From a virus: a stretch of 64,000 bases of DNA. Under the pieces are notes generated by a model. That model ran no database searches, had not been told where the DNA came from, and saw only the letters and a program-made list of their open reading frames with translations. Shown here piece by piece: positions 472-44,078 of the stretch (position 1 is its first letter; the number at the start of each line of letters is the position of its first letter). The stretch lies in the IMG/VR virus record IMGVR_UViG_3300017991_000049, positions 1 to 64,000 of that record. One strand, given 5' to 3'. The translations under genes and the position numbers were made by a program.

Positions 472-2367
472 ATGTCTTCTGACTCTCCAGTCTTCGACGA
501 ACCGATTGCGCTAGAAGGACTCCTGGCGCAAGCGAAAACAGTGTTCAATCCCGATGAAAACTCTCGAATAACGTCCACCGACCAGGTGGCCGCCTACAAT
601 AAGCTGTTGCGCACAGGCCAGGTAGATACCCTGGCGCACGCGCTACCGCTTATGTTGAACCTCAAGGGTAATCCGTACACCCTGAACGACCACTTTCCTT
701 TCGAGGAAATCTTCCGGTTCCACATGCCGTCGGCGCTGATCTACAAGACCGGCCGGCAGGTGTCCAAATCTACATCTCTGGCAGCGCACGGCGTCGTTAC
801 GTCGATCTCGCTGCCGAACATCACCACGCTGTACGTCATGCCGCTCTTCGAGCAGGTGCGCCGTTTCAGCACGATGTTTGTGCAACCATTCATCGACCAA
901 TCGCCGGTCAAGAAGCTCTGGACGGGCACGGACACCGTGAACAGCGTGCTCCACCGCAGCTTCCACAACCATTCGAAGATGCTCTTCTCGTTCGCGTTCC
1001 TGAACGCAGACCGTATCCGCGGTATTTCCGCGGACAAGATGGCGGTCGACGAAGTCCAGGACATGAACCACGAGCACATCCCCATTATACGCGAAACGAT
1101 GTCGGCAAGCCCGTGGGCCTTCCGACAATTTACCGGAACGCCCAAAACGCTCGACAATACGCTGGAAGCGCTCTGGGGTGAGTCGTCCCAAGCAGAGTGG
1201 TTTGTGCCGTGCATGCACTGCACGACCAACGGCGCGCCGACCTGGAACATCCCCACAATGGAGTTCCACCTGGAGAAGATGATCGGGCCCTACCGCCCAG
1301 ACATCTCCGAGGCGCATCCGGCAACGATCTGCCACAAGTGCGGCAAAGCGATCAGCCCACGCCTCGGCCGGTGGGTGCACAGATACCCTGATCGGATTTG
1401 GGATCAGGCGGGCTATCACGTGCCGCAGGTCATAATGCCGCTGCACTATGCGAAACCTGACAAGTGGGCAGAACTACTTGCCAAGATGGCCGGTAAGGGC
1501 AACACCCCGCTGAACGTGTTCTTCAACGAAGTGCTGGGCGAATCGTACGATACGGCAGCCAAGCTCGTGACGCTGACCGAGATCGACGCGGTGTCAAACC
1601 TTGGCGAGAACACCATCAACGCAGCGCGCGCCCGCCGGGGTATGTACAGCATGGTTGTGCTGGCAGTCGACTGGGGTGGCGGCGGTGAGAAGGGCCTGAG
1701 CTTCACGACGGCTGCCGTGTTGGGTATGCGCCGAGACGGCACCATCGAGGTCATCTACGGCAAGCGCCTGCTGACGCCACACGACCACCTGCGCGAGGCT
1801 CGAGAGATCAAGCAGCTCTGGGAGATCTTCAAGCCCACGATACTGGCGCACGACTACACAGGCGCCGGTGCGCTCCGCGAGACGTTCCTGATCCAGGCTG
1901 GTGTGCCCACGCGGGCCACGATGCCTTGCCAGTACGTCCGCTCGGCGTCGCAGCAGCCGTGCTACCACGTGGCGCCTACGCTGCAGCACCCACGCTCGCA
2001 CTACCGCGTTGACAAGAGCCGCTCGCTGTTGCTCACCTGCGCGATGATCAAATGCCGACGGCTCAAGTTCTTCAACAAGGACCACAATAGCAAGGAAGAC
2101 CCAGGACTCATCTGGGACTTCTTGGCCCTGGTGGAAGACAAGGTCACCACGATGGCTGCGGGCGAGATCTACCGGATCACGAAGCAGCCGGGCTTCACCG
2201 ACGACTTCGCGCAAGCTGTGAACCTGGGATGCGTCGCAATGTGGTATCGCACCCGCAGATGGCCAAAGCTTGACGAGATCGCCGAGTACGCCATCACGGA
2301 CGACCAGCTACGCGCGTCGGTGCCGCAGCACGACTCCGACTGGGACGACGAGCTACTGCCAGGCTAG
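472..2367 (+). CDS. terL: terminase large subunit (ATPase plus nuclease)
   Basis: 631 aa. Walker A-like GRQVSKST, Walker B-like MAVDEVQDM, C-terminal RNaseH-like nuclease region (VLAVDWGGGG). Size and architecture typical of phage TerL. Confidence 0.85.
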   Translation: MSSDSPVFDEPIALEGLLAQAKTVFNPDENSRITSTDQVAAYNKLLRTGQVDTLAHALPLMLNLKGNPYTLNDHFPFEEIFRFHMPSALIYKTGRQVSKSTSLAAHGVVTSISLPNITTLYVMPLFEQVRRFSTMFVQPFIDQSPVKKLWTGTDTVNSVLHRSFHNHSKMLFSFAFLNADRIRGISADKMAVDEVQDMNHEHIPIIRETMSASPWAFRQFTGTPKTLDNTLEALWGESSQAEWFVPCMHCTTNGAPTWNIPTMEFHLEKMIGPYRPDISEAHPATICHKCGKAISPRLGRWVHRYPDRIWDQAGYHVPQVIMPLHYAKPDKWAELLAKMAGKGNTPLNVFFNEVLGESYDTAAKLVTLTEIDAVSNLGENTINAARARRGMYSMVVLAVDWGGGGEKGLSFTTAAVLGMRRDGTIEVIYGKRLLTPHDHLREAREIKQLWEIFKPTILAHDYTGAGALRETFLIQAGVPTRATMPCQYVRSASQQPCYHVAPTLQHPRSHYRVDKSRSLLLTCAMIKCRRLKFFNKDHNSKEDPGLIWDFLALVEDKVTTMAAGEIYRITKQPGFTDDFAQAVNLGCVAMWYRTRRWPKLDEIAEYAITDDQLRASVPQHDSDWDDELLPG

Positions 2368-3077
2368 TCATCCCATTCCTCGATCCGGTAGCCAAGGAAC
2401 TCGAACAGCTGATCGTTGGGCTCCCTGTAGACGTCCGCCAGCCGCTGGCGCATCTTAGCGCGCATAGGCGGATACTTCCGTCGGTAGTTACGCGTATGGG
2501 GCAGCTTGCACCCAGCCAGCCCAAGCCACGCGAAGACGTCGTTCGTGGTGCGGGCGCTGTCAATACGCATGCGCTCGTTCACGATGATTAGCTGTTGCTC
2601 ACGTGGGTAGAATTCCGTGAGTACCTTGAGTTGTTTAGCGTACAGCCCGCGTCGGATACAATCGAGCTCGCCGCGCAGCGTAAGCTCTTTGTCGACATCC
2701 GGCAGCTCTTCGTTGATAAACTCGCGGAACGAACGGCCTTTTGCGCTGCCGCCGCGCCGTGCTAGTTGGTACTGCGAGTAGCACCGATCAATCGGGTTAC
2801 GTAGCACCATGATCAGCTTGACCTGCGGCAGCACTGTATGCATGCGGGCGATGTGCGTCCGGTGCAGCATGTATCCGGGTGTCTTCTCGCCGCAGACGCG
2901 TCCGCGACTGCCGTTGAACTGCCGTACGTACCAGGCTACGCCGCGGTCCCAATGCATATCAAAGAAGTGCAGCTCCTTGCCTGGAAAATAGACGGCAGGA
3001 TGTTGCTGCATATTGGACACCAGCGCGGTGGTGCCGCACTTCTGCGCTCCCGCTATCACAAAGTATGGTAGTTGCAT
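2364..3077 (-). CDS. PAPS-dependent sulfotransferase
   Basis: 237 aa. 5'-PSB motif IAGAQKCGTTAL and 3'-PB motif RNPIDRCYSQY of the sulfotransferase fold. Stop overlaps the terL stop by 4 nt. Confidence 0.8.
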   Translation of the reverse strand: MQLPYFVIAGAQKCGTTALVSNMQQHPAVYFPGKELHFFDMHWDRGVAWYVRQFNGSRGRVCGEKTPGYMLHRTHIARMHTVLPQVKLIMVLRNPIDRCYSQYQLARRGGSAKGRSFREFINEELPDVDKELTLRGELDCIRRGLYAKQLKVLTEFYPREQQLIIVNERMRIDSARTTNDVFAWLGLAGCKLPHTRNYRRKYPPMRAKMRQRLADVYREPNDQLFEFLGYRIEEWDD

Positions 3078-3138
3078 AGCTACTCCTGGTTAAGGTCCGC
3101 CATGATCGTTGCACGCGCATAGGTACCTCCTTATGCAT

Positions 3139-3160
3139 GAAAAAAGCCCCTTTCGGGGCT
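3139..3160 (-). terminator. rho-independent terminator between the tRNA array and the sulfotransferase gene
   Basis: Minus-strand RNA AGCCCCGAAAGGGGCU hairpin followed by UUUUUU. Confidence 0.6.
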
Positions 3161-3164
3161 AGGT

Positions 3165-3234
3165 GGCTGGAGGGATTTGAACCCTGCTCCTTCAGCGCCA
3201 CAAGCTGACGTGCTGCCTGGTACACCACAGCCAC
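3165..3234 (-). tRNA. tRNA-His (anticodon GTG), with extra 5' G-1
   Basis: Minus-strand cloverleaf read by eye. T-arm GGGUUCAAAUCCC. Anticodon stem UCAGC/GCUGA, loop UUGUGGC. Confidence 0.75.
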
Positions 3235-3236
3235 AG

Positions 3237-3307
3237 TGGCCCCACTAGGAATCGAACCTAGACCTGACGGTTAAGAGCCGCCTGCTCGACCTTCGAGCTA
3301 CGGAGCC
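3237..3307 (-). tRNA. tRNA-Lys (CTT)
   Basis: Acceptor GGCUCCG/UGGGGCC. T-arm CUAGGUUCGAUUCCUAG. Anticodon loop CUCUUAA. Confidence 0.75.
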
Positions 3308-3332
3308 AATTTTGTTCATATGATCAAGATCC

Positions 3333-3400
3333 GCCACACGGAGTTGAACCGTGTCCTCCGGCTTACCATGCCGGGCTCGTACCAGTCCGAGCTCTGGCGG
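3333..3400 (-). tRNA. tRNA-Thr (GGT)
   Basis: T-arm CACGGUUCAACUCCGUG. Anticodon stem CCGGC/GCCGG, loop AUGGUAA. Acceptor has one mismatch. Confidence 0.65.
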
Positions 3401-3415
3401 AAAACAGCCCTAAGA

Positions 3416-3485
3416 TCCGAGGGCAGGAATCGAACCCGCACCTGCTGAGTACGAAACAGCTGTTCTGCCGTTAAACTACCCCGGA
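3416..3485 (-). tRNA. tRNA, probably Thr (CGT)
   Basis: Acceptor UCCGGGG/CCCUCGGA. T-arm GCGGGUUCGAUUCCUGC. Anticodon loop read as UUCGUAC but the stem assignment is ambiguous. Confidence 0.55.
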
Positions 3486-3488
3486 TCA

Positions 3489-3590
3489 TCAGCGGAAGAG
3501 TATCCAAAACATGCCCAACACCACGATCCCAACAATGACATCGCGCGCTACGTCAGGCCAGGTGGTGGCCTCCGCAAGCAACATTTCCAT
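3489..3590 (-). CDS. 33-aa hydrophobic peptide between tRNAs (MEMLLAEATTWPDVARDVIVGIVVLGMFWILFR)
   Basis: Below the ORF-track size cutoff. ATG preceded by AAAGGAGG at ideal spacing. Single TM-like segment. Confidence 0.3.
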   Translation of the reverse strand: MEMLLAEATTWPDVARDVIVGIVVLGMFWILFR

Positions 3591-3613
3591 GACAAACCTC
3601 CTTTGTTAGTCAG

Positions 3614-3684
3614 TGGTCCCACTAGGAATCGAACCTAGACCCGCTGCTTAAAAGGCAGCAGCTCGACCTTCGAGCTATAGGACC
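3614..3684 (-). tRNA. tRNA-Lys (TTT)
   Basis: Acceptor GGUCCUA/UAGGACC. Anticodon stem GCUGC/GCAGC, loop CUUUUAA. T-arm CUAGGUUCGAUUCCUAG. Confidence 0.75.
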
Positions 3685-3689
3685 GTAAG

Positions 3690-3765
3690 TAGCGGTGGAC
3701 GGATTCGAACCGCATCTTCCGCAGGGGCTACCCACGGCGCTCTACCTGACGACTACCGACCCCGC
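3690..3765 (-). ncRNA. tRNA-like element (Asp-like D-arm); acceptor pairing not resolved
   Basis: T-loop GGUUCGAAUCC and D-arm-like GGUAGUCGUCAGGUAGAGC are present, but no clean 7-bp acceptor helix could be found by eye. Confidence 0.35.
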
Positions 3766-3930
3766 AGCCCGTGGATGTGACGTCACCATCCGGGACCCGA
3801 TCGCGCAGACGAATGTTCACGCCCTCGACGTGTACTTTGTCTCAGACGCTTCATTTGAGCTACACCGCCATAAGACGGCCGCTAGGACCACATCTTTCCT
3901 GAATGCGTTATTTCAGCACGCAGCCAAGTC

Positions 3931-3999
3931 GCTCCGCTCGGGGTCGAACCGAGACCACTGGATCATGACTCCAGCACACTGCCAATTATGTTACGGAGC
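3931..3999 (-). tRNA. tRNA-Met (CAT), elongator or Ile-lysidine type
   Basis: Acceptor GCUCCGU/GCGGAGC. Anticodon stem CUGGA/UCCAG, loop GUCAUGA. T-arm CUCGGUUCGACCCCGAG. Confidence 0.75.
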
Positions 4000-4003
4000 A
4001 GTC

Positions 4004-4070
4004 GGATGCCTGGGTTTCGAACCCAGCTCGGGGGCCTTATAAGAGTCCCCTAGGTCCCAAGCCTGCATCC
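4004..4070 (-). tRNA. tRNA with probable anticodon TAT (Ile2-like); irregular D and anticodon stems
   Basis: Acceptor UGGAUGC/GCAUCCG 7/7. T-arm CUGGGUUCGAAACCCAG. Loop CUUAUAA has U33 and A37. Confidence 0.45.
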
Positions 4071-4071
4071 A

Positions 4072-4620
4072 TCATAGCTTCACAGCCCAAGTCGTGTCCT
4101 CGAATACGTCGACGCGGTCCGCGAATTCCCTATCTACTGCTTTCATCACGCCACGGAAGCGCTTGTCGTAGTCATGCCCGGCGATGAACCGCGTGCAATG
4201 CGGCAGCCACAGCTTGATTTGCCGTGACACAGCTGCGTCCGTATGCACAGCGTCGATGTACACGCCGTCGACCTTACCGATGAACGGTTCAACGTCCATG
4301 TCGAAGGCGTTTATCAGCATGACGTTACGCTGATTGTACGTGTTCTTGTGGGCTTGCGCATGCGCCCAGCGCATGTCGCGCGGATGCATCTCCGCACCGA
4401 CACAGTCGCCAAGCGTTTTGTCGATTGTTAGTTCCCACGGATCGACGCCGAGCACGTAGTCGAAATACTTGGCGTGGACTAGTGTGCTTTCGCCCTGCCA
4501 TACGCCCAATTCGACCAATGTTCCACCGCCGTACTTACGGCCAAACGCGTGCAGGCCTTCCGTTAGGCCGGGCGCGGCGCGCATGCACAATCTAGGATCG
4601 TCGAGCTTGTTCTTTGTCAT
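4072..4620 (-). CDS. class I SAM-dependent methyltransferase (Methyltransf_24-like)
   Basis: 182 aa. Gly-rich SAM-binding segment GTLVELGVWQGEST. Acidic residue after beta-2. Size fits small O- or C-methyltransferases. Confidence 0.55.
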   Translation of the reverse strand: MTKNKLDDPRLCMRAAPGLTEGLHAFGRKYGGGTLVELGVWQGESTLVHAKYFDYVLGVDPWELTIDKTLGDCVGAEMHPRDMRWAHAQAHKNTYNQRNVMLINAFDMDVEPFIGKVDGVYIDAVHTDAAVSRQIKLWLPHCTRFIAGHDYDKRFRGVMKAVDREFADRVDVFEDTTWAVKL

Positions 4621-4633
4621 TTGTTCCTCCAGT

Positions 4634-4706
4634 AGGCGATGCAGGACTTGAACCTGCCGCCTCCACCGTGTCGAGGTGGCGCTCTGGCCTGATGAGCTAA
4701 TCGCCT
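4634..4706 (-). tRNA. tRNA-Val (GAC)
   Basis: Acceptor AGGCGAU/AUCGCCU. Anticodon stem CCACC/GGUGG, loop UCGACAC. T-arm GCAGGUUCAAGUCCUGC. Confidence 0.7.
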
Positions 4707-4708
4707 GC

Positions 4709-4807
4709 GGATCCGGTAGGGGCTTGCCCGGGGCGGGGCCCCTAGGCCGGACTTCGAACCCGTATTATCGCTCCTCCATTCCCCTAGTTGTTAAGGAGTC
4801 CCGGATC
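4709..4807 (-). ncRNA. about 99-nt tRNA-like RNA with non-canonical architecture
   Basis: Palindromic 7-bp terminal helix GAUCCGG/CCGGAUC encloses a T-arm-like ACGGGUUCGAAGUCCGG plus two extra hairpins (CUCC...GGAG and UAGGGGC...GCCCCUA). It is not a standard cloverleaf. Confidence 0.35.
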
Positions 4808-4810
4808 AGT

Positions 4811-4883
4811 CTGGGTAGCAAGATTTGAACTTGCGTCCTCGCGGTCCCGAACCGCGCGCTCTGCCAGGCTGAGCTACACCCAG
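4811..4883 (-). tRNA. tRNA-Pro (CGG)
   Basis: C1-G72 acceptor CUGGGUG/UACCCAG. Anticodon stem CGCGG/CCGCG, loop UUCGGGA. T-arm GCAAGUUCAAAUCUUGC. Confidence 0.75.
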
Positions 4884-4884
4884 A

Positions 4885-5475
4885 TTACAATTCTTGTATG
4901 CGTTCCTGCTTGAGCCACTTGCGTAGCAGCGCTTGCTCGGAATGCGCGTCGTGTCCTTTGAAGTTCGCATTGTACCCGAAGCAGGCGATCTTTATCGTCC
5001 AGTACGTGTACGCCGGATTGTCGACCAACCACTTCAAGATCCAAACGCCCGCGCTCGGATTCACGTTCTGCTCTACACCGAAGTTGCGTTTGTATCGCCG
5101 TACCCACGCGCAATGGCGCCTGTCAACGAATTCTACGCGCGATTCTTTGAGCGCCGGATAGCGTTTGAAGAACGGACAAAGGTCCATCTTGGTTAACTGG
5201 CTAGGCCGGAGCTTTTCGCGCTGTGACGGCATAATCCACAGATGCGGCTGCGCTTTCACGACTTCTGGGACGAGCCTAAGGCGCCCCATCGCTATCAACT
5301 CTCCATGGCCTTTCGCTGCACCACGTAGCGCCAGGTGTGTCGTACGTTTGCCGATCAGCCCGGTCTCGTAGAACGGTGTCGTCTGGAAGCGCGCAACAGC
5401 GTCCGCCGCATCTATAGCTGCGGACATGTCTTCGGACGGCTTGCTGTTGCCGACTACGACGATGGTTTTTGACAT
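4885..5475 (-). CDS. GT29-like glycosyltransferase (sialyltransferase-like), paralog 1
   Basis: 196 aa. N-terminal VVVGNS...AAIDAADAVARFQ matches sialylmotif L (VVGNSG...IDxHDxVxRxN). C-terminal CFGYN...GHDAHSEQ resembles the S/VS motifs. Confidence 0.5.
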   Translation of the reverse strand: MSKTIVVVGNSKPSEDMSAAIDAADAVARFQTTPFYETGLIGKRTTHLALRGAAKGHGELIAMGRLRLVPEVVKAQPHLWIMPSQREKLRPSQLTKMDLCPFFKRYPALKESRVEFVDRRHCAWVRRYKRNFGVEQNVNPSAGVWILKWLVDNPAYTYWTIKIACFGYNANFKGHDAHSEQALLRKWLKQERIQEL

Positions 5476-6119
5476 AATCCGGCTCCAACGTGCTCCGCAA
5501 GCTCCCAGTCAGCCTCGGTGTCAATGTCGACCAGTTCGGTGCCGCGCACTTCTTGGAACCATGGATGGAAACCGATGCGCCGTCCGTGCTCACGCATGAA
5601 AGTGCGCCGAAGAATCCAGAAGCCATCCGACTCAATGAAGATCGGCGCTTGCGTTTGCGTCGGCGGACATGTACGTGGGTCGTGGTTGATTGACTGGTAG
5701 TGGCAGTTCCACAGACGTCCGCGGACGGCTTGCATGCTGGCGGCCGAATCAAAACCGCTAGCGATGACAGCATTCATGGCGGTGCGGATACTGTCCACGC
5801 GAATGAACGGCGACGTCGCGTTCTTGATGCAGCACCACGTCGCTTTCTCTGGAACGGCCGCCAGCATATCGCGAAACATTCTGTTGCTGTCCTGTATCTC
5901 CATGACGGTCCGCTCGGGATACAGCACGACGTCGGACGGGACGTGATCCATGATGGCGGGTTCGCCGTAGACGCCGATCTCGTCGATAAGACCCTCTTCA
6001 CGCAGCTGGCGTAGCGGTTCCAGCGTCCATTCGTACAGCGGGCGTCCGCACAGTTCGCGGAAGTTCTTGCCGGGCACACGCTCGCTGCGCATCTTCAGGG
6101 GTGTGACAGCTATTCGCAT
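5454..6119 (-). CDS. CMP-nonulosonic acid synthetase (NeuA/KdsB-family acylneuraminate cytidylyltransferase)
   Basis: 221 aa. N-terminal IAVTPLKMRSERVPGKN (canonical IAxIPAR-SKRLPGKN). C-terminal VDIDTEADWELAE. Confidence 0.8.
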   Translation of the reverse strand: MRIAVTPLKMRSERVPGKNFRELCGRPLYEWTLEPLRQLREEGLIDEIGVYGEPAIMDHVPSDVVLYPERTVMEIQDSNRMFRDMLAAVPEKATWCCIKNATSPFIRVDSIRTAMNAVIASGFDSAASMQAVRGRLWNCHYQSINHDPRTCPPTQTQAPIFIESDGFWILRRTFMREHGRRIGFHPWFQEVRGTELVDIDTEADWELAEHVGAGLCQKPSS

Positions 6120-6745
6120 GGTATGTCTCCCATGTTACCGATCGGGTGCAACCGGCCGCCACGCACCCAACGTTTCAGCAGCTCACGCTCCAGGCCTTCT
6201 GGATGATGACCGCGAAAACCGCCCGTGAAGCCGGTAACCTGTATGGTATACTCTGCAAACTCCGTTTGCGATAGCAGCCATTGTAGCACCCATAAGCCGC
6301 CCGTTGGCTCCACATGGCCTTTGAAGCGCCGTCGCCTCCAAAAGTATGCTTTCAGCGCCGTACGTGCTGACATATCCACGAAGCGTATCGGCAGCTCGCT
6401 CATCTGCGGATAACGTGCGAAGAAGGGCGCAACCTCGACGTGATGCAGATTGCACCACGACAACTTACGCGGCGCATGCATGCCCCAGCCGTCGCTGCGC
6501 ATGACCCACAGCTCTGGTCTGGCAGCTAGTGCCTCCTGCGATAGGGGCAGCTTGCCTGTACTCAGATCTTTGCCAGTCCCTGTCGAGGCGCCGCGGAATG
6601 CCAACGCCGTTGTCTTAGTGCCGGTCAGCCCTAACGGGTAGTAGAAAGCCATCTGGAAGCGTACGACTTCGTCAGCGTCGTCGATGATCTCCGACAGGTC
6701 GACAGTCGGCTCAGCGTTTCCGACGACTACCATAGTCTTGGCCAT
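6110..6745 (-). CDS. GT29-like glycosyltransferase, paralog 2
   Basis: Start moved to MAKTMVVVGNAEP because the upstream part of the ORF overlaps tRNAs. Shares VVVGN...IDDADEVVRFQ and GF-x-G-x-HH-x-E motifs with 4885-5475. Confidence 0.5.
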   Translation of the reverse strand: MAKTMVVVGNAEPTVDLSEIIDDADEVVRFQMAFYYPLGLTGTKTTALAFRGASTGTGKDLSTGKLPLSQEALAARPELWVMRSDGWGMHAPRKLSWCNLHHVEVAPFFARYPQMSELPIRFVDMSARTALKAYFWRRRRFKGHVEPTGGLWVLQWLLSQTEFAEYTIQVTGFTGGFRGHHPEGLERELLKRWVRGGRLHPIGNMGDIPCE

Positions 6746-6759
6746 GACGCCTCCGTGCG

Positions 6760-6845
6760 AGTGCGCGCAGTCAGGATTCGAACCTGCATTTCTCCGTTGG
6801 CTACACTTAGGTTCCGGCAGCGCTACCTTTCCCGTTCTCGCCCGC
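6760..6845 (-). tRNA. long (about 86-nt) tRNA-like gene, possibly a type II tRNA; isotype not resolved
   Basis: T-arm CAGGUUCGAAUCCUG and Leu-like D-arm GGAAAGGUAGCGC. Acceptor and anticodon helices ambiguous by eye. Confidence 0.4.
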
Positions 6846-6878
6846 GGTTGACTGTCCAATCAGCCTATACGCGCGAAG

Positions 6879-6952
6879 TCTAAGTGGCAGGATTCGAACC
6901 TGCGGCCTTCTGGCCCCCAGCCAGACGCTCTACCAGACTGAGCTACACTCAG
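6879..6952 (-). tRNA. tRNA-Pro (GGG)
   Basis: C1-G72 acceptor CUGAGUG/CACUUAG. Anticodon stem UCUGG/CCAGA, loop CUGGGGG. T-arm GCAGGUUCGAAUCCUGC. Confidence 0.7.
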
Positions 6953-7569
6953 ATTAGCCAATCGTTTTCATCCTGCATACGCTGGATTTTCTTGGTCTGC
7001 TTGATATGCCAGTTGTAGTGGCACATATAGCGATTCTCGCTCAGCTGACTGTTCAGCTGGTACCACCCAGACGGGTACATCAGCGGGTCCAGCATGACCA
7101 TGTCCACGACATCAGGCTCTTTCCGCAACCTGTGCTGGATACGCATCTGATCGTCGCAGTATTGGCGGCGCCGGCGGTACTTAGGCAGGTTCGCAGGGTC
7201 CAGCAGGTCCAGCGTCGCTGGCGTCGGTGCCGCGGCGAAGAATCCTGCGCACACCTTGTTGTCGCCGTCCGGACAGTCACGTTGGAAGACGATGTCGTGG
7301 CCTTCAAGCGTGCGCTCCAAATCCTTACGCGGATCACGGCGGAAAACGACGTCGACGTCGGTCCAGATGACGACCTCGCCTTTCAGAAGCTCCTTGCGTA
7401 CGAGCCTGACCTTCTGCATCATCATCTGTTCGAACAGCTCGGTACCGTACGGCTCGCCGTGCACCTGCATATCGTGGATCTCGATGCCAACGCCGATGCG
7501 CTTCAACGACGCGAGCATGTTTTGCACCAGCGGACCCACTCTTTCGGTGCACATCGAAATCAATTTCAT
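6949..7569 (-). CDS. nucleotide-diphospho-sugar (GT-A fold) glycosyltransferase
   Basis: Start set to MKLISM because upstream codons overlap tRNA-Arg. Motifs VVIWTDVDVVF (DxD) and DIVFQRDCPDG. About 206 aa. Confidence 0.45.
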   Translation of the reverse strand: MKLISMCTERVGPLVQNMLASLKRIGVGIEIHDMQVHGEPYGTELFEQMMMQKVRLVRKELLKGEVVIWTDVDVVFRRDPRKDLERTLEGHDIVFQRDCPDGDNKVCAGFFAAAPTPATLDLLDPANLPKYRRRRQYCDDQMRIQHRLRKEPDVVDMVMLDPLMYPSGWYQLNSQLSENRYMCHYNWHIKQTKKIQRMQDENDWLI

Positions 7570-9928: not shown

Positions 9929-10207
9929 TTACCAGCGGATTTCGGTGAACGGCCGCGAGCACGGATGCCCGGGGTCTGGGTCGTCATGCCGAATCACCTC
10001 GAAGCCGTCTTGGCGAAGCCGCATGAACACGGCGCGCTCCTCTGCCGGCGTCGGATGCTTTTTGAAGTTTGTGAACGGATTCATTATGCTGCTGCGGCCT
10101 TGCAGCGCAGCGCCTTTGATCCGTTCGTAGATAGACGCCAGGATCGGTTCGATCACCGGCCCTTGCAGGTTCTTGCGCGTGATGTCGCGCGCTTCATCAG
10201 CTTTCAT
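9929..10207 (-). CDS. hypothetical protein (92 aa)
   Basis: ORF in a co-directional gene run. No motif recognised. Confidence 0.4.
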   Translation of the reverse strand: MKADEARDITRKNLQGPVIEPILASIYERIKGAALQGRSSIMNPFTNFKKHPTPAEERAVFMRLRQDGFEVIRHDDPDPGHPCSRPFTEIRW

Positions 10208-10514
10208 CGTCGTCTCCGTGCATGGCCGACAGCAAACCGAGCAGCTCGAAGACGCGCTTGGCGTCTATGGGCTTATCGGGCGTTAGCTGTTCGGGCTGGA
10301 TTTTCTCGTCGCCGAAGTAGCTGTAGCCGTGGGCGACGTCCGGACTCAATGTCAGCTTGGTTTCGACCCACTTGTCGAAATCGTCGCCGAGTTCGTCTTC
10401 GGCTTCTGCGAGCAGCTTGCCGAGTTCATGGGCCCGCAGCAGTAACGCTCGGCCCATGCGCATCACACCCAGATGGTGCTGATGGATCTTGCCTATGGTT
10501 TCTTCAGACATCAC
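10197..10514 (-). CDS. hypothetical protein (about 106 aa)
   Basis: Start chosen at MSEETIGK to avoid overlap with the downstream gene. Acidic C-terminus. Confidence 0.35.
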   Translation of the reverse strand: MMSEETIGKIHQHHLGVMRMGRALLLRAHELGKLLAEAEDELGDDFDKWVETKLTLSPDVAHGYSYFGDEKIQPEQLTPDKPIDAKRVFELLGLLSAMHGDDDES

Positions 10515-10771
10515 TTTCCTTTCTCTGCTAGCTCTGCTAGCGTATCGCCGTGACAGGCCTGCGGGGCGCAATAACAACCAAGCACTTTGCCGCGCAGTGT
10601 TGGCAAAAGCCATAGCAAATGCGGCTGCGTTTGCAACCATGCTCGATATTTGGCAATCACCTCTGCGCGTGTACCATCTGGGCCAATACGAAAAGGATTG
10701 CCCCAGATGCTCCCACGTCCGATATAGATATCGAACGGCTCGCGTTTGCAATGTACGACACGTGTAGTCAT
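10511..10771 (-). CDS. DUF4326-family protein
   Basis: Start at MTTRVVHCK; the upstream part of the ORF overlaps tRNA-Ser. Motifs VVHCKREPFDIYIGRG-x-WGNPF and LGCYCAP-x2-CHGD are typical of DUF4326. Confidence 0.55.
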   Translation of the reverse strand: MTTRVVHCKREPFDIYIGRGSIWGNPFRIGPDGTRAEVIAKYRAWLQTQPHLLWLLPTLRGKVLGCYCAPQACHGDTLAELAEKGK

Positions 10772-24613: not shown

Positions 24614-25399
24614 TCATATTCTTATCAGACTGTTCGGGAAACGTCTACGCCTAGCACAGAGCCATTTGGCGTCATTGGAGCAGTCGTTGGCGATGATCGG
24701 CACCTCGTGCTCCACGATATACTCGAAGATCTTCACAGTGATTTCGCGACTCTCGCGCGGCGATAGCAGCTGCAAAGGCTCGAAGAAATAGCAGTCTCCT
24801 ACGAGTTCACGTGCGCGCTGACACCGTACGTACAGCTCCGCCAGGTTGATATGCGAGACCTGCTTGGCGACCTCGTGGATGAGTCCCTTGGTGATCAGAT
24901 TGTCGTAAACCTCTGGTATGGAAGGGACTTCGACCGTGTCGGCCCACTCCAATTTGGACATGTCCCACGTGGCTGCCAGGTTCAACCGAATCTCGTTGAT
25001 ACCCGCAGCGCGCAGGCGCTCCGCGGTCTCCTTGTTCAGCCGCAGGCCGTTGGTATAGCACCACTGCCAATCGACATCGAGCTGCTCAGCAATCTCGACG
25101 ATCTTGTCGATGTACAGCAACGGCTCACCGCCGGAGTAGCTTACGCCGCGGATATCGTACTGGTAGATCTGCGATACAATCCGATCGAGATGGCCGGGCG
25201 TGTCCAGCCGATTGCGCTCTGGACGGCTGCAGAACCAGCAGTCAGCGTTGCAGCGCTGTCCCATGAACAGGCATAGCCACGTACCATCCTTGCAGCGCTG
25301 GCATCCTTTGGACAGGTCATGAATTTCGCCGTTCGTGACAGTGCCATCTGAGATGTGGACACCAAGCTTCTCGTAGCGGTCTCGATGTTCGGGTAGCAT
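24614..25399 (-). CDS. radical SAM enzyme (QueE / activating-enzyme-like)
   Basis: 261 aa. CNADCWFC (CxxxCxxC) cluster and SGGEPLL glycine-rich SAM motif. Confidence 0.8.
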   Translation of the reverse strand: MLPEHRDRYEKLGVHISDGTVTNGEIHDLSKGCQRCKDGTWLCLFMGQRCNADCWFCSRPERNRLDTPGHLDRIVSQIYQYDIRGVSYSGGEPLLYIDKIVEIAEQLDVDWQWCYTNGLRLNKETAERLRAAGINEIRLNLAATWDMSKLEWADTVEVPSIPEVYDNLITKGLIHEVAKQVSHINLAELYVRCQRARELVGDCYFFEPLQLLSPRESREITVKIFEYIVEHEVPIIANDCSNDAKWLCARRRRFPNSLIRI

Positions 25400-41251: not shown

Positions 41252-42190
41252 TTACTGAGTCGCGGGCGCGTGTCGAATGGTTTCGATCGACTCCCGCATC
41301 ATAGCGGTGTTCATCGTGGCCTGGTTGATCGCCTCGTAAGGCATAATGAAGACCACGTTGTTCTCGCCCTTGGCCATTTCGGTGGAGACGTTTTCCATCA
41401 CCTCCATCTGGCGCCACGATAAGTACGATGGCGTCAGCGACTTGGCCAAGATACCGTTTTCGTCCGCCTGGGCTTGCGCCCGGATCATACGGACTTTTGC
41501 CAATTCCGTTTCTATTCCGGCCCGCCGTTGTGCTTCCGCCATTTCGGCCTCAGCCAGGGCTGCCTTCCGTTGATCTTCCAGCTCGGCATTCTTGATAGCG
41601 TTCCGTTGCTGGATAACGACCGGCGGATAGTCGATGTTGGAGACCAACACCGCCGATACGTTCAGCGGGTACTTCAGCGCGGTCAGTCGTTTGCGTACGT
41701 CCGCCGATAGATCCGCCTCGATCTTCAATCTGTTAGGCCGGATGTCATCGGTTTCGTACGTGCTAACGATATTGCGCGTTGACGATCGAATGATGTCCCG
41801 AACGGTCATCTCGTAGAACTTGTCCAGAGACAGCTCGTGTCCGGCTACCTCAGAGCCGTCTGCTGTCTTAATCGCCGGAACTTTCTCCTTGATGAACTCG
41901 ATCGAATCTTTGTCGACCTGGAACGACAGCACGGCCTTCGTGTCGACGTCCATGTTGATATCGTCCGTACAGAGAATCTTCAGCGTCTCCTTGTACGACT
42001 TCAACTTCTGGTCAACGAAGTACAGCCGATCGCGGCCGTAGGCCTTGTACACGCCCTCGCTGACGATGGTGCTCTCACCGCTTGGGTGGAGGATGATCAC
42101 CTTCTTTCCAGGAGGCACGACGCTTCCCATGCACCCGGTCAGTGTCATCACGAAACACGCCAACAAGCTAATCAGAATCAACCTCTTCAT
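41252..42190 (-). CDS. SPFH/band-7 (stomatin/prohibitin-like) lipoprotein
   Basis: Lipobox LTGC after the signal peptide MKRLILISLLACFVMTLTGC. Central SPFH-like region and Ala/Glu-rich coiled coil (AALAEAEMAEAQRRAGIETELAKVRMIRAQAQADENG). Confidence 0.65.
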   Translation of the reverse strand: MKRLILISLLACFVMTLTGCMGSVVPPGKKVIILHPSGESTIVSEGVYKAYGRDRLYFVDQKLKSYKETLKILCTDDINMDVDTKAVLSFQVDKDSIEFIKEKVPAIKTADGSEVAGHELSLDKFYEMTVRDIIRSSTRNIVSTYETDDIRPNRLKIEADLSADVRKRLTALKYPLNVSAVLVSNIDYPPVVIQQRNAIKNAELEDQRKAALAEAEMAEAQRRAGIETELAKVRMIRAQAQADENGILAKSLTPSYLSWRQMEVMENVSTEMAKGENNVVFIMPYEAINQATMNTAMMRESIETIRHAPATQ

Positions 42191-42622: not shown

Positions 42623-43458
42623 CTGGTGGCACGCTTGCCTCCTTTCTTGCGGTCAGTCTTGATACGCCGGTATTCGCGCTGATCGCGCTTCCGCCGTTGG
42701 TTATGAAGCAGTCGGCCCGGACGCCCTCCGAGGGCGCGTCGTACAGGATCTGCAAGTTGCTGCCGCATTAGCCACTTGCGCATCGCTGTCCAGGTTCCCC
42801 ACTTCATTCGTTTGCACTGCTCGCGCAGTGCCCACAGGTCGTCGACAGTCAGCCATTTGTAGTCGTCGGATTTATGGGTTCGATGGGCCTGGATCATTCG
42901 GCGGAATGTGCTGGGACGTGCCTGCCGAAACATGTATCGTGCCTCATCCAAATGCCGTAGAACTAGCTTGCTGATGTCGTCGCAACTCTGGCCGATGTCT
43001 TCCCAAGGGTACTTCGGCCTGTCTGATTTGAAGACGGCATTGCCTTTCAGCGCCGTCACTATGCCGTTGTTGGGGCACCACCGCCCGACCACGTGCGTAG
43101 TTGTGGTCGGCCAAGTCATCATGCCCGGATCGGTCGTCAGCATCTGTAAAGCAACGCCGACGCCGAACGGCTGCGCCCACGAATCCGACAACGTGACGTC
43201 GCGCGAGAACGCTGCCGAACTGATGTACTCGGATTTCTCCGGGCAAGCTATCCGGACCACCCCTCCCTCGAAAGGGAGAGGAAAGTCCGGATATGTTGTT
43301 CCGTGCAGCTTCAGCGCCAGCTCGTCGGCGGCATCGATAATGTGCTCGTCCACAGACGGCTCGTGGCGTAACCGCCCGGGGTCGTTTTCTCGCACAGCCC
43401 TGTTGATTACCCCGGCACGGCCGGTTGGATCACAGCTGTTGACCAGCAAAATTGACAT
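42607..43458 (-). CDS. hypothetical protein (283 aa), basic C-terminus
   Basis: ORF in a co-directional run. No motif recognised. Confidence 0.5.
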   Translation of the reverse strand: MSILLVNSCDPTGRAGVINRAVRENDPGRLRHEPSVDEHIIDAADELALKLHGTTYPDFPLPFEGGVVRIACPEKSEYISSAAFSRDVTLSDSWAQPFGVGVALQMLTTDPGMMTWPTTTTHVVGRWCPNNGIVTALKGNAVFKSDRPKYPWEDIGQSCDDISKLVLRHLDEARYMFRQARPSTFRRMIQAHRTHKSDDYKWLTVDDLWALREQCKRMKWGTWTAMRKWLMRQQLADPVRRALGGRPGRLLHNQRRKRDQREYRRIKTDRKKGGKRATSRSKD

Positions 43459-44078
43459 TGTTCGCAGTGCCTTTTCGGTTTGATACCGTTCTCAGCGGGA
43501 CACACCAAGCATCCATTGATCTTCTTCACGATAGTATCCCGTTTGACCCTGAAAACCAAGTCGCAGTAGTCAGGCACTGATTCGCCGTGTTCGCATTGCA
43601 TATAGCAAGAGCGGATCCCGTCGACCGGAGGCACACCATCGATGGAGTGCGTGATCTTGTCGCAGGAAAACCACAGGTGGAAGTTGTCCACGTTGGCTAG
43701 GTCGATGAGAGCGTCGAGCAGCTTGGCTCGGCGCCATGACCGTGTATATGCATAGAACGTCACGTCTGGGCAGCCTTGCGCGATCTGAATCCACTTGCGG
43801 ATGTAGGGCGCGCTGTAGAAATCGCCGGCAACGTGTACTCGTAGTATCTTCAACTCCAGCTGTCTGATCTCGTCGATCATCTTCTTCACGAAGTCGGGCT
43901 CCTTGGACGCGTCCCAGTTGCGCTGATGCGCAGCAGTGACGTTCGTCATCCGAAAGAACCCATTCGTGGCATAACAGTCAGATTCGCATACCTCGGTTCT
44001 ACCTGGGCAGGTCTCTACAGCCAGGATAGAGAAGCATGGAACCTCGCCAAGCTTTGAGTTGCCTGGTCGGATCAGCAA
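43407..44078 (-). CDS. Cys-rich protein, DUF5131 (phage Gp37/Gp68)-like
   Basis: N-terminal cluster CPGRTEVCESDCYA resembles the DUF5131 N-terminal Cys motif; additional CxxC pairs follow. Confidence 0.4.
   Translation of the reverse strand: MLIRPGNSKLGEVPCFSILAVETCPGRTEVCESDCYATNGFFRMTNVTAAHQRNWDASKEPDFVKKMIDEIRQLELKILRVHVAGDFYSAPYIRKWIQIAQGCPDVTFYAYTRSWRRAKLLDALIDLANVDNFHLWFSCDKITHSIDGVPPVDGIRSCYMQCEHGESVPDYCDLVFRVKRDTIVKKINGCLVCPAENGIKPKRHCEQCQFCWSTAVIQPAVPG

Follow-up and report, generated by a model that had tools for sequence, protein, structure and literature searches.

Glycosyltransferase family 29 (GT29) makes all animal sialoglycans, and glycosylation in viruses is known from the capsid and tail proteins of mycobacteriophages, the capsids of chloroviruses and mimivirus, and the sialyltransferases of poxviruses and herpesviruses. 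The prokaryotic Maf enzymes (DUF115) put pseudaminic (Pse) or legionaminic (Leg) acid, activated with cytidine monophosphate (CMP), directly on protein serine or threonine in the cytoplasm, which is a precedent for a protein acceptor. Here we describe a locus in positions 1 to 64,000 of the IMG/VR virus record IMGVR_UViG_3300017991_000049 (the whole 64,000-nucleotide stretch is called the window), in which two paralogous GT29-like proteins of about 200 residues, termed mini-GT29, lie on either side of a cytidylyltransferase resembling CMP-nonulosonate synthetases. Prokaryotic GT29 proteins have been seen only in silico, and our literature searches found no activity for them. Petit et al. (2018, Sci Rep 8:2946, PMC5811610) collected 23 bacterial GT29-like sequences, mostly from alpha-proteobacteria, reported all four sialylmotifs in the set, and argued that GT29 originated in bacteria.

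The mini-GT29 proteins have sialylmotifs L, S, and VS in common with the eukaryotic GT29 enzymes (pig ST3Gal-I, 2WNB/2WNF; human ST6Gal1, ST6GalNAc2, and ST8SiaIII) and, like them, presumably use a CMP-sugar donor in an inverting, metal-independent transfer with a His base. They differ in size (196 to 211 residues versus ∼270 to 320 for the eukaryotic catalytic domain), in having no signal anchor, stem, disulfide cysteines, or motif III, and in a Gln in place of the motif L Asn. The absence of a signal anchor, a stem, and conserved disulfide cysteines argues for cytoplasmic proteins. Bacterial GT29-like proteins belong to the same mini family and size class (∼200 to 235 residues), but they are only 20 to 30% identical to the phage copies, which are strictly paired with the NeuA-type cytidylyltransferase. 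The mini family defined here has no motif III, in contrast to the four-motif bacterial set of Petit et al. (PMC5811610). The GT42 enzymes (Campylobacter CstI/CstII) and Maf are prokaryotic, soluble or peripheral, and without motif III, as mini-GT29 is, but both are larger (CstII, 291 residues; Maf, >600 residues), and the profile similarity of mini-GT29 to GT42 is 0.04 to 0.13 versus 5e-12 to GT29. The cytidylyltransferase shares the PF02348 domain, the N-terminal nucleotide loop, the TSP motif, and the C-terminal DIDxxxD with CMP-nonulosonate synthetases (Neisseria meningitidis NeuA/CSS, 1EYR; mouse CMAS, 1QWJ; and the Prymnesium synthetase of CMP-activated 2-keto-3-deoxynononic acid [Kdn], 9T4Z, PMC12934254), from which it differs in the P-loop, where Arg is replaced by Lys and Lys by Glu. 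Like the virus-encoded glycosylation systems, this phage carries its own candidate sugar-activating and sugar-transferring enzymes.

We regard it as fairly probable that this is an accessory glycosylation locus, inserted in a tRNA island, whose NeuA-type enzyme and mini-GT29 proteins activate and transfer a sialic-acid-like sugar. A preliminary description, made from the DNA letters alone, had proposed a six-gene module for a sulfated or methylated sialo-like glycan. It was largely right on the enzymology, with all six enzyme assignments holding, and it overstated both the rarity of such enzymes and the unity of the six genes; its product is unproven. The locus provides the first informative genetic context for a prokaryotic GT29, namely, a conserved and coupled NeuA-type CMP-sugar synthetase partner, together with a structural model, predicted with high confidence, of a minimal form of 196 residues that lacks motif III, and it makes prokaryotic GT29 function directly testable with two small soluble proteins. 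If active, these proteins would offer a compact sialyltransferase scaffold suited to bacterial expression, would be relevant to the proposal that eukaryotic sialylation arose in bacteria, and would add nonulosonate (possibly also sulfate) decoration to the short list of phage-borne glycosylation chemistries.

The mini-GT29 pair and its cytidylyltransferase partner

The three genes at the core of the locus are as follows.

4885-5475, minus strand: mini-GT29 paralog A, 196 residues; ortholog, by position, of the one copy present in related phages
5454-6119, minus strand: NeuA-type (CMP-nonulosonate-synthetase-like) cytidylyltransferase, 221 residues; PF02348 CTP_transf_3, 32.0 bits
6110-6745, minus strand: mini-GT29 paralog B, 211 residues; family hidden Markov model (HMM), 3.3e-50; 37% identical to paralog A

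Pairwise comparison (E = 4e-47) identifies A and B as true paralogs, with an identity of 55% in the first 55 residues, the donor-binding N terminus, and of 30 to 36% beyond. Searches of the PDB with the single sequences or a two-sequence profile gave top matches at chance level, and a word-indexed search of 5.8 billion proteins returned only the query protein itself. The Pfam model PF00777 (gathering score, 23 bits) found nothing in either paralog at E <= 1, so the Pfam threshold for GT29 is not reached. When the two-sequence profile was run exhaustively with HMMER over 1.84 billion representatives, 105 proteins were recovered, nearly all of 170 to 240 residues. The consensus of an alignment of 94 mini-GT29 family sequences is IVGNA..D.S..ID..D.VVRFN...G..G.KTD ... 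PS.G ... L.GF...G...H.W..E., with G9, N10, V27, R29, G42, G143, H175, and E180 near-invariant. Scanned one by one, 54 of the 94 members match PF00777 Glyco_transf_29 (best, 5.5e-11), several of them above the cut-off at 25 to 29 bits, and no other model recurs. The family profile, searched against all PDB sequences, retrieved GT29 enzymes ahead of all others, namely, pig ST3Gal-I (5.3e-12), ST6Gal1 (3.6e-9), ST6GalNAc2 (2e-6), and ST8SiaIII (3e-5), with GT42 CstII marginal in the same search (E = 0.04 to 0.13).

The predicted structure agrees with these profile matches. An AlphaFold2 model of paralog A built from the 94-sequence alignment reached a predicted local distance difference test (pLDDT) score of 95.7 and a predicted template modeling (pTM) score of 0.91; a two-sequence alignment had given an unusable model (pLDDT, 44). 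In a Foldseek comparison of the model with the PDB, the 17 best matches are GT29 structures, and all 34 matches at E <= 0.001 are sialyltransferases (GT29, followed by CstII and a Pasteurella enzyme). The model thus has the GT-A variant 2 (sialyltransferase) fold.

Three of the four sialylmotifs can be recognized in an alignment (A3) of the paralogs with four mini relatives and two longer proteins that match PF00777 positions 50 to 271 of 272. Motif L reads VVVGNS...IDAADAVARFQ followed by GKRTT in paralog A, and VVVGNA...IDDADEVVRFQ followed by GTKTT in paralog B. Motif S reads NPSAGVW...CFGY in A and EPTGGLW...GF in B, where P140 and G143 are invariant in A3 and aligned with the PSTG of ST3Gal-I. 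The VS-like motif is HDAHSE in A and HPEGLE (HHPEGLE) in B; its H175 and E180, invariant in A3, align with the H(S/T)PDRE that forms motif VS of the longer GT29-domain proteins, and an amphipathic helix follows in both groups (ELVQKWISEGKL versus ALLRKWLKQERI). HMMER alternatively places H175 on the HHYWE (motif III) of ST3Gal-I; we assign it to VS because it directly precedes the last helix (residues 177 to 189 in the model). PSxG of motif S and Hx4E of VS are near-invariant across the mini family. The first beta-strand starts at residue 4 with no N-terminal hydrophobic segment, so there is no type II anchor, and no Cys stands at the motif L or motif S positions, so the GT29 L-S disulfide is absent. 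The two longer reference relatives in A3, the JGI metagenome proteins P0203 and P0204 (372 and 362 residues), have a GT29 domain with all four sialylmotifs fused to an N-terminal multi-pass hydrophobic domain, and they could be protist or giant-virus proteins.

Judged by profile and model, the paralogs are GT29-like (homologous, of the same predicted fold, and with three of the four motifs) and not established GT29 members. The preliminary description had named a GT29-like pair, which stands by transitive profile homology and predicted fold and falls short in scoring below the PF00777 threshold and in having no motif III. It had also allowed that the similarity might be limited to the N-terminal motif on some other fold. 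We rejected an origin of the resemblance in that motif alone, as motifs S and VS and the whole predicted fold agree with GT29.

The partner enzyme scores above the CTP_transf_3 gathering cut-off (22.6 bits) over residues 7 to 207 of 221, and its translation contains the signature motifs MRIAVTPLKMRSERVPGKN and VDIDTEADWELAE; every motif quoted in the preliminary description, for this and the other enzymes, was found in the translations. A single-sequence PDB search found the Prymnesium CMP-Kdn synthetase 9t4z (4.6e-9) and mouse CMAS (4e-5), both over the full length, with KdsB similarity confined to the first 40 residues. A profile (A5) from the 11-member clade of this cytidylyltransferase, searched against solved structures, matched CMP-Kdn synthetase (2e-29), mouse CMAS (1e-23), NeuA (1.6e-16), NmCSS (1.2e-14), and 6ifd (6e-11). 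These matches to NeuA-type enzymes span approximately residues 3 to 214, including the sugar-binding and dimerization half, whereas KdsB chains are matched at 5e-9 or worse and over at most residues 1 to 129, the nucleotide-binding N-terminal half. On the sugar side, the TSP motif NATSPF aligns with QATSPF of CMP-Kdn synthetase, at a position where KdsB has a different motif, QGDEP. The PseF model (NCBIfam TIGR03584) is matched by all 11 clade members, the best at 4.3e-24. Because the NeuA-type profile matches are full length and those to KdsB cover the N-terminal half, we classify the enzyme by its sequence as NeuA-like rather than KdsB-like, a class within which no specific nonulosonate can be assigned. 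A KdsB identity was rejected on the same grounds, and the "NeuA/KdsB" cytidylyltransferase of the preliminary description is thereby narrowed to the NeuA type. In tblastn searches, its cellular relatives are only 21 to 34% identical over most of the protein.

Linkage in related phages and the accessory enzymes

On the minus strand, the genes run in the order GT-A, tRNA-Pro(GGG), paralog B, cytidylyltransferase, paralog A, tRNA-Pro(CGG) and tRNA-Val, methyltransferase, six tRNAs, and sulfotransferase, where the last gene is convergent with a plus-strand terminase gene at the end of the locus. All six protein-coding reading frames of the preliminary description were recovered on this strand at the positions it had given, and each has a GGAG-type ribosome-binding site 6 to 11 nucleotides (nt) 5′ of its ATG. 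The ATG starts used for paralog B (6745) and GT-A (7569) are those of independent gene calls on identical metagenome contigs. The stop of paralog B overlaps the start of the cytidylyltransferase gene by 10 nt, and the end of the latter overlaps the start of paralog A by 22 nt; from these overlaps, the three genes are predicted to be translationally coupled.

The pairing of the two enzyme types recurs in other phages. Relative contigs were recovered through cytidylyltransferase homologs (33 to 62% identity, tblastn) and then scanned with the mini-GT29 family HMM, and mini-GT29 directly adjoins the cytidylyltransferase in all four lineages so recovered (L001, L002, L025, and L026-28). The order in L025 and L002 is GT-A, cytidylyltransferase, mini-GT29, which corresponds to the position of paralog A, while in L026-28 mini-GT29 precedes the cytidylyltransferase, which corresponds to that of paralog B. 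GT-A has orthologs (38 to 49% identity) in L025 and L002, each beside the cytidylyltransferase, and in L019, where the ortholog stands alone. Among 60 cellular genomes with more distant cytidylyltransferase relatives, only 1 has a mini-GT29 within 6 kb. Adjacency in all four relative lineages, set against 1 of 60 cellular genomes, makes the pairing a feature of this phage clade.

A second view of conservation comes from 13 IMG/VR relatives with a 76 to 100% identical terminase, inspected for up to 10 kb on each side of the terminase gene. One of them (L014, terminase 100% identical) is the same phage and has the sulfotransferase and part of the methyltransferase. The other 12 have no cytidylyltransferase, mini-GT29, sulfotransferase, or methyltransferase within those flanks, and GT-A is kept only in L019, where tRNA-His, Thr(GGT), Thr(CGT), Lys(TTT), and Met lie beside the terminase gene in the order of the window. 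Other relatives with a 76 to 78% identical terminase have only 2 to 11 tRNAs at the same place. IMG/VR scans with the paralog profiles A1 and A4 and with the cytidylyltransferase returned no relatives, and none of three tblastn queries (the cytidylyltransferase, paralog A, and one member central to the family) matched a GenBank phage. Our literature searches found no description of a phage CMP-nonulosonate synthetase/GT29 pair, of a phage sulfotransferase of the 3-O-sulfotransferase (3-OST) type, or of a mini-GT29 assay.

In a 55-kb phage-like IMG metagenome contig (L003), a mini-GT29 gene (10001-10651) stands beside a GNAT acetyltransferase gene, with no cytidylyltransferase within 10 kb; LAGLIDADG, Hint/intein, RNA ligase, and N6_N4 methylase genes are also present on the contig. 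Mini-GT29 genes carried by phages are thus found in two or more distinct gene neighborhoods.

The remaining features of the locus are the following.

2364-3077, minus strand: carbohydrate sulfotransferase of the type dependent on 3′-phosphoadenosine-5′-phosphosulfate (PAPS), 237 residues; Sulfotransfer_1 (PF00685), 1.2e-13
3145-3160, minus strand: terminator-like GC hairpin and T run between tRNA-His and the sulfotransferase gene; consensus scan
3162-4000, minus strand: six-tRNA array, His, Lys(CTT), Thr(GGT), Thr(CGT), Lys(TTT), Met; ARAGORN
4072-4620, minus strand: class I S-adenosylmethionine (SAM)-dependent methyltransferase, 182 residues; Methyltransf_24 (PF13578), 4.7e-9
4632-4883, minus strand: tRNA-Val(GAC) and tRNA-Pro(CGG), between the GT-A/cytidylyltransferase/mini-GT29 trio and the methyltransferase; ARAGORN, Rfam
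6878-6952, minus strand: tRNA-Pro(GGG), between the GT-A gene and paralog B; ARAGORN; Rfam tRNA, 67.8 bits
6949-7569, minus strand: GT-A glycosyltransferase with DxD (WTDVDVV), 206 residues; PF03407 Nucleotid_trans, 4e-16

The sulfotransferase scores 51.5 bits with Sulfotransfer_1 (cut-off, 22); this model and CTP_transf_3, both named for checking in the preliminary description, thus pass their gathering scores. Its best solved relatives are heparan sulfate 3-O-sulfotransferases (3-OST-3, 8.8e-23), followed by the N-deacetylase/N-sulfotransferase NDST1 (1e-15). It contains AQKCGTTAL (5′-PSB, KCGTTAL) and LRNPIDRCYS (3′-PB; RNPIDRCYS versus RDPVTRAIS), and its EKTPGY aligns with the EKTPSY segment of 3-OST-3. 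We take KCGTTAL and RNPIDRCYS to be the PAPS-binding sites and the Glu of EKTPxY to be the catalytic Glu of 3-OST. Its sequence places the enzyme specifically in the carbohydrate (heparan sulfate 3-OST/NDST) type. The methyltransferase scores 37.5 bits with Methyltransf_24 (cut-off, 26.3) and has the SAM motif I VELGVWQGES; no solved relative was found by sequence, and gene position is what would tie it to a glycan pathway. GT-A scores 60.1 bits with Nucleotid_trans (cut-off, 22) over residues 33 to 198, again with no solved relative found by sequence; the PF03407 family includes plant GT77 enzymes. All of the locus enzymes are without a signal peptide or membrane anchor.

Proposed pathway and rival explanations

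We propose that the cytidylyltransferase would use CTP and a nine-carbon 2-keto-3-deoxy sugar acid, of the N-acetylneuraminic acid (Neu5Ac), Kdn, Pse, or Leg type, to form a CMP-sugar; the nonulosonate is probably supplied by the host. The mini-GT29 enzymes would bind this CMP-sugar through the motif L/S Rossmann core, with His175 of the His-x4-Glu motif as the candidate base for a transfer, with inversion, to a hydroxyl of a cytoplasmic acceptor. Since the paralogs are 55% identical in the donor-binding N terminus and 30 to 36% elsewhere, the duplication suggests two different acceptors or linkages. GT-A probably adds an underlying neutral sugar from a nucleoside diphosphate sugar, and the 3-OST-like sulfotransferase and the Methyltransf_24 enzyme, gained only in this lineage, are plausible candidates for adding sulfate and methyl groups to the same glycan. 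Any acceptor of these enzymes would have to lie in the cytoplasm, because all of them lack signal peptides and membrane anchors. The favored candidates are phage structural (virion) proteins not yet assembled or a lipid-linked precursor of a host glycan, and we lean toward virion proteins because the enzymes appear soluble and cytoplasmic and by analogy with Maf flagellin glycosylation and with self-glycosylating phages.

A bolder form of this proposal, which we hold to be doubtful, is that a lineage of jumbo phages uses a cytoplasmic, ∼200-residue GT29 without motif III, disulfides, or anchor, and a dedicated CMP-nonulosonate synthetase from the same operon, to sialylate its own virion proteins directly, here with sulfation by the heparan-sulfate-type sulfotransferase and O-methylation as well. 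If true, this would assign a function to a prokaryotic GT29 for the first time, and it would mean the smallest sialyltransferase scaffold known so far and the first phage particle that is both sulfated and sialylated.

A number of observations, given in this and the following paragraphs, weigh against the activation and transfer of a sialic-acid-like sugar by the locus or against a role of all six genes in it. Queried directly, paralogs A and B have no match in Pfam, PHROG, NCBIfam, or PDB sequences, so their GT29 homology is transitive. The terminal Asn of motif L (RxN) is Gln in both. Sialylmotif III is deleted in the whole mini family, which has a gap against GFHYY(A/Q)E and ∼18 further residues of the long proteins; in the mammalian enzymes, motif III contributes a phosphate-contacting His. 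No biochemically characterized member of the mini family was found in the literature searches. Among cellular proteins, the nearest relatives of the cytidylyltransferase are encoded in GT2/2-hydroxyacid-dehydrogenase cassettes that have no GT29 gene. Such relatives (30 to 34% identity) occur at approximately 5000-8500 in L031 to L034, metagenome-assembled genomes of Chloroflexia, Methylococcales, Pseudomonadales, and Gammaproteobacteria. Three of these loci were viewed and share a repeated cassette of GT2, cytidylyltransferase, and D-2-hydroxyacid dehydrogenase, which continues with a short-chain dehydrogenase/reductase in L032 and a GDP-mannose dehydratase in L033; in L031, a PF05159 Capsule_synth gene lies upstream.

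The unity of the six genes is the part of the preliminary description that conservation divides. The trio of GT-A, cytidylyltransferase, and one mini-GT29 is kept in L025 and L002, while the sulfotransferase, the methyltransferase, and paralog B were found only in this phage and identical contigs, and not in its nearest relatives. It is therefore possible, although we think it improbable, that only the trio forms a functional unit and that the sulfotransferase and methyltransferase are accessory genes that entered the same tRNA island independently and act on unrelated substrates, such as small molecules, host glycans, or nucleic acid. Both genes are absent from the trio-keeping L025 (TerL 84% identical) and L002 and from L019, in which the tRNA order is kept (no methyltransferase ortholog was found in L025 or L019), and tRNA arrays separate both from the trio. 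A canonical terminator-like hairpin (3145-3160) just upstream of the sulfotransferase gene parts it from the other genes of the locus, although the number of terminator-like sites in the region is not above chance and the hairpin is only a lead. The best PHROG of the methyltransferase (2675, 7.9e-12) is annotated "DNA methyltransferase." In favor of cooperation, all the genes point the same way and fit into 5.2 kb, the sulfotransferase belongs to the carbohydrate (3-OST/NDST) type, and a separate lineage, L027, has an unrelated Sulfotransfer_2 gene ∼1 kb from its mini-GT29/cytidylyltransferase pair.

The same chemistry with another sugar is also conceivable, the pair activating and transferring the eight-carbon 3-deoxy-D-manno-octulosonic acid (Kdo), or another ulosonic or 2-keto acid, with Kdo drawn from the pool present in every Gram-negative host; we consider this unlikely. 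The N-terminal loop of the cytidylyltransferase, SxRVPGK (SERVPGKN), is KdsB-like, and KdsB models match 7 of the 11 clade members (down to 1.6e-12). With PseF (cut-off, 205.7), the window enzyme reaches 33.6 bits, and it falls far short of the cut-off of each NCBIfam equivalog model, which counts against the preferred reading. The search for a nonulosonate synthase elsewhere in the genome, suggested in the preliminary description, covered the window open reading frames of at least 150 residues and ∼14 kb of flanks (∼78 kb of 226,517 bp) and turned up no NeuB/PseI/LegI or NeuC-type gene; the host may supply the donor sugar. A GT9 (heptosyltransferase-family) domain is also encoded by the phage (57517-59526), and GT9 enzymes act on Kdo-containing acceptors. 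The cellular relative L031 lies near a Capsule_synth gene, a family (PF05159) that presumably includes the KpsS/KpsC Kdo transferases. Ulosonic acids, including Kdo, are found in the lipopolysaccharide core of marine bacteria with GT29-like genes (PMC5811610). Against Kdo stand the full-length profile matches to NeuA, CMAS, and CMP-Kdn synthetase (2e-29 to 6e-11), compared with those to KdsB over the N-terminal half (5e-9 or worse), the alignment of the sugar-side NATSPF with QATSPF of CMP-Kdn synthetase, and the fact that PseF is the NCBIfam model matched by all 11 members (best, 4.3e-24).

Beyond this phage clade, the mini-GT29 family occurs in Ensifer/Sinorhizobium, where it is named "Urease operon accessory protein," in Aureimonas, where it is named "glycosyltransferase family 29 protein," and in Methylobacterium, Dechloromonas, and Elusimicrobiota. 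Many bacterial members are in uninformative contexts, such as rhizobial urease operons, which also speaks against the preferred reading; the Aureimonas and Elusimicrobiota contexts do not help with function, and no CMP-sugar synthetase was found in the four bacterial mini-GT29 contexts inspected. In Ensifer adhaerens (L006, 8001-8645) and a related contig (L007, 3630-4274), the mini-GT29 gene lies between ureB and ureC, beside an LprI-domain gene. In BFVD, the same fold is found in a few uncultured phages, giant viruses, herpesviruses, and poxviruses, and one entry is named [quoted passage not shown] The preliminary view that GT29 sialyltransferases are essentially eukaryotic or poxviral thus has to give way, as bacterial members were found here and both the bacterial set of 2018 (PMC5811610) and the phage and giant-virus entries of BFVD precede this locus.

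Non-glycan contexts of some bacterial members, such as the urease operons, and faint MptE-like Pfam matches in two family relatives would fit a different idea, that the mini-GT29 proteins are not glycosyltransferases but other nucleotide-dependent enzymes of the wider fold superfamily (such as MptE-like or thiamine pyrophosphokinases, or SteA-like proteins). We judge this very unlikely given the near-invariance of the GT29-specific PSxG and Hx4E in the family, the strict adjacency to a CMP-sugar synthetase gene in the phage clade, and one Dechloromonas homolog within a cluster of GT2, GT8, and GT1-type glycosyltransferases and a methyltransferase. A pyrophosphokinase function was rejected on the structure and profile matches to GT29.

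DNA-decorating phage glycosyltransferases are well known from the T-even phages. A nucleic acid target, either phage DNA (glycosyl hypermodification against restriction) or RNA, would suit the position of the locus in an island of 39 tRNA genes, the Ro60/TROVE, SpoU, and radical SAM genes elsewhere in the window, and the cytoplasmic nature of every enzyme, but it is extremely improbable. The window showed no gene for base hypermodification, whether hydroxymethylase, thymidylate-synthase-like, or other, the sulfotransferase belongs to the carbohydrate type, to our knowledge no GT29 or GT42 enzyme acts on nucleic acid, and it is common for phage tRNA islands to contain protein genes.

The phage and other genes of the window

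A protein identical to the cytidylyltransferase of the window is encoded, among others, on a 226,517-bp metagenome contig, k141_2629452 of ENA ERZ27256796, on which the window lies reversed at about positions 14183-78182; the source is therefore an uncultured jumbo phage of ∼226 kb, of which the window covers about a quarter. The GC content of the window is ∼0.58. The source is a tailed phage, with the following terminase gene at the start of the region.

472-2367, plus strand: gpA-type large terminase; PHROG 675, 4e-57

In a DNA search of the window against GenBank phages (INPHARED), tRNA-like stretches were the sole matches, and the terminases of GenBank phages are at most 33% identical to that of the window. 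Closer relatives are found in IMG/VR (terminase identity, 76 to 80%) and in an NCBI metagenome-assembled genome, L025 (TerL, 84%).

ARAGORN predicts 15 tRNA genes between 3162 and 7932 and 39 in the whole window, in line with the alternation of genes and tRNA arrays noted in the preliminary description. The 39 lie at 3162-34479, all on the minus strand, and cover 19 amino acids with protein genes interspersed over ∼31 kb; no tRNA-Tyr is among them. An Rfam scan of the window at gathering thresholds found tRNAs only, and no Y-RNA-like gene. The window encodes a Ro60 homolog (54288-56030, minus strand) with a TROVE domain (1e-39) and a Ro60 vWA domain (3e-52), as well as an SPFH/Band 7 protein (41252-42190). 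An 845-residue protein (19617-22154, minus strand) has the major-vault-protein shoulder (PF11978, 7e-23) and a Vault_3 repeat (4e-9), which is unusual in a phage.

Two further genes of the window concern glycans. A NodZ-like (fucosyltransferase-type) enzyme (2e-12; 23499-24575, minus strand) adjoins a radical SAM enzyme (region 23499-25399), and a 669-residue protein (57517-59526, minus strand) is a fusion of GT9 (heptosyltransferase-family) and GT2 domains; together they indicate that the phage invests heavily in glycan synthesis. A GP88-family protein (PF17338, 3.5e-38) is encoded at 43407-44078 on the minus strand, and in L026-28 a GP88 gene lies directly downstream of the mini-GT29/cytidylyltransferase pair (L026, 10724-11320).

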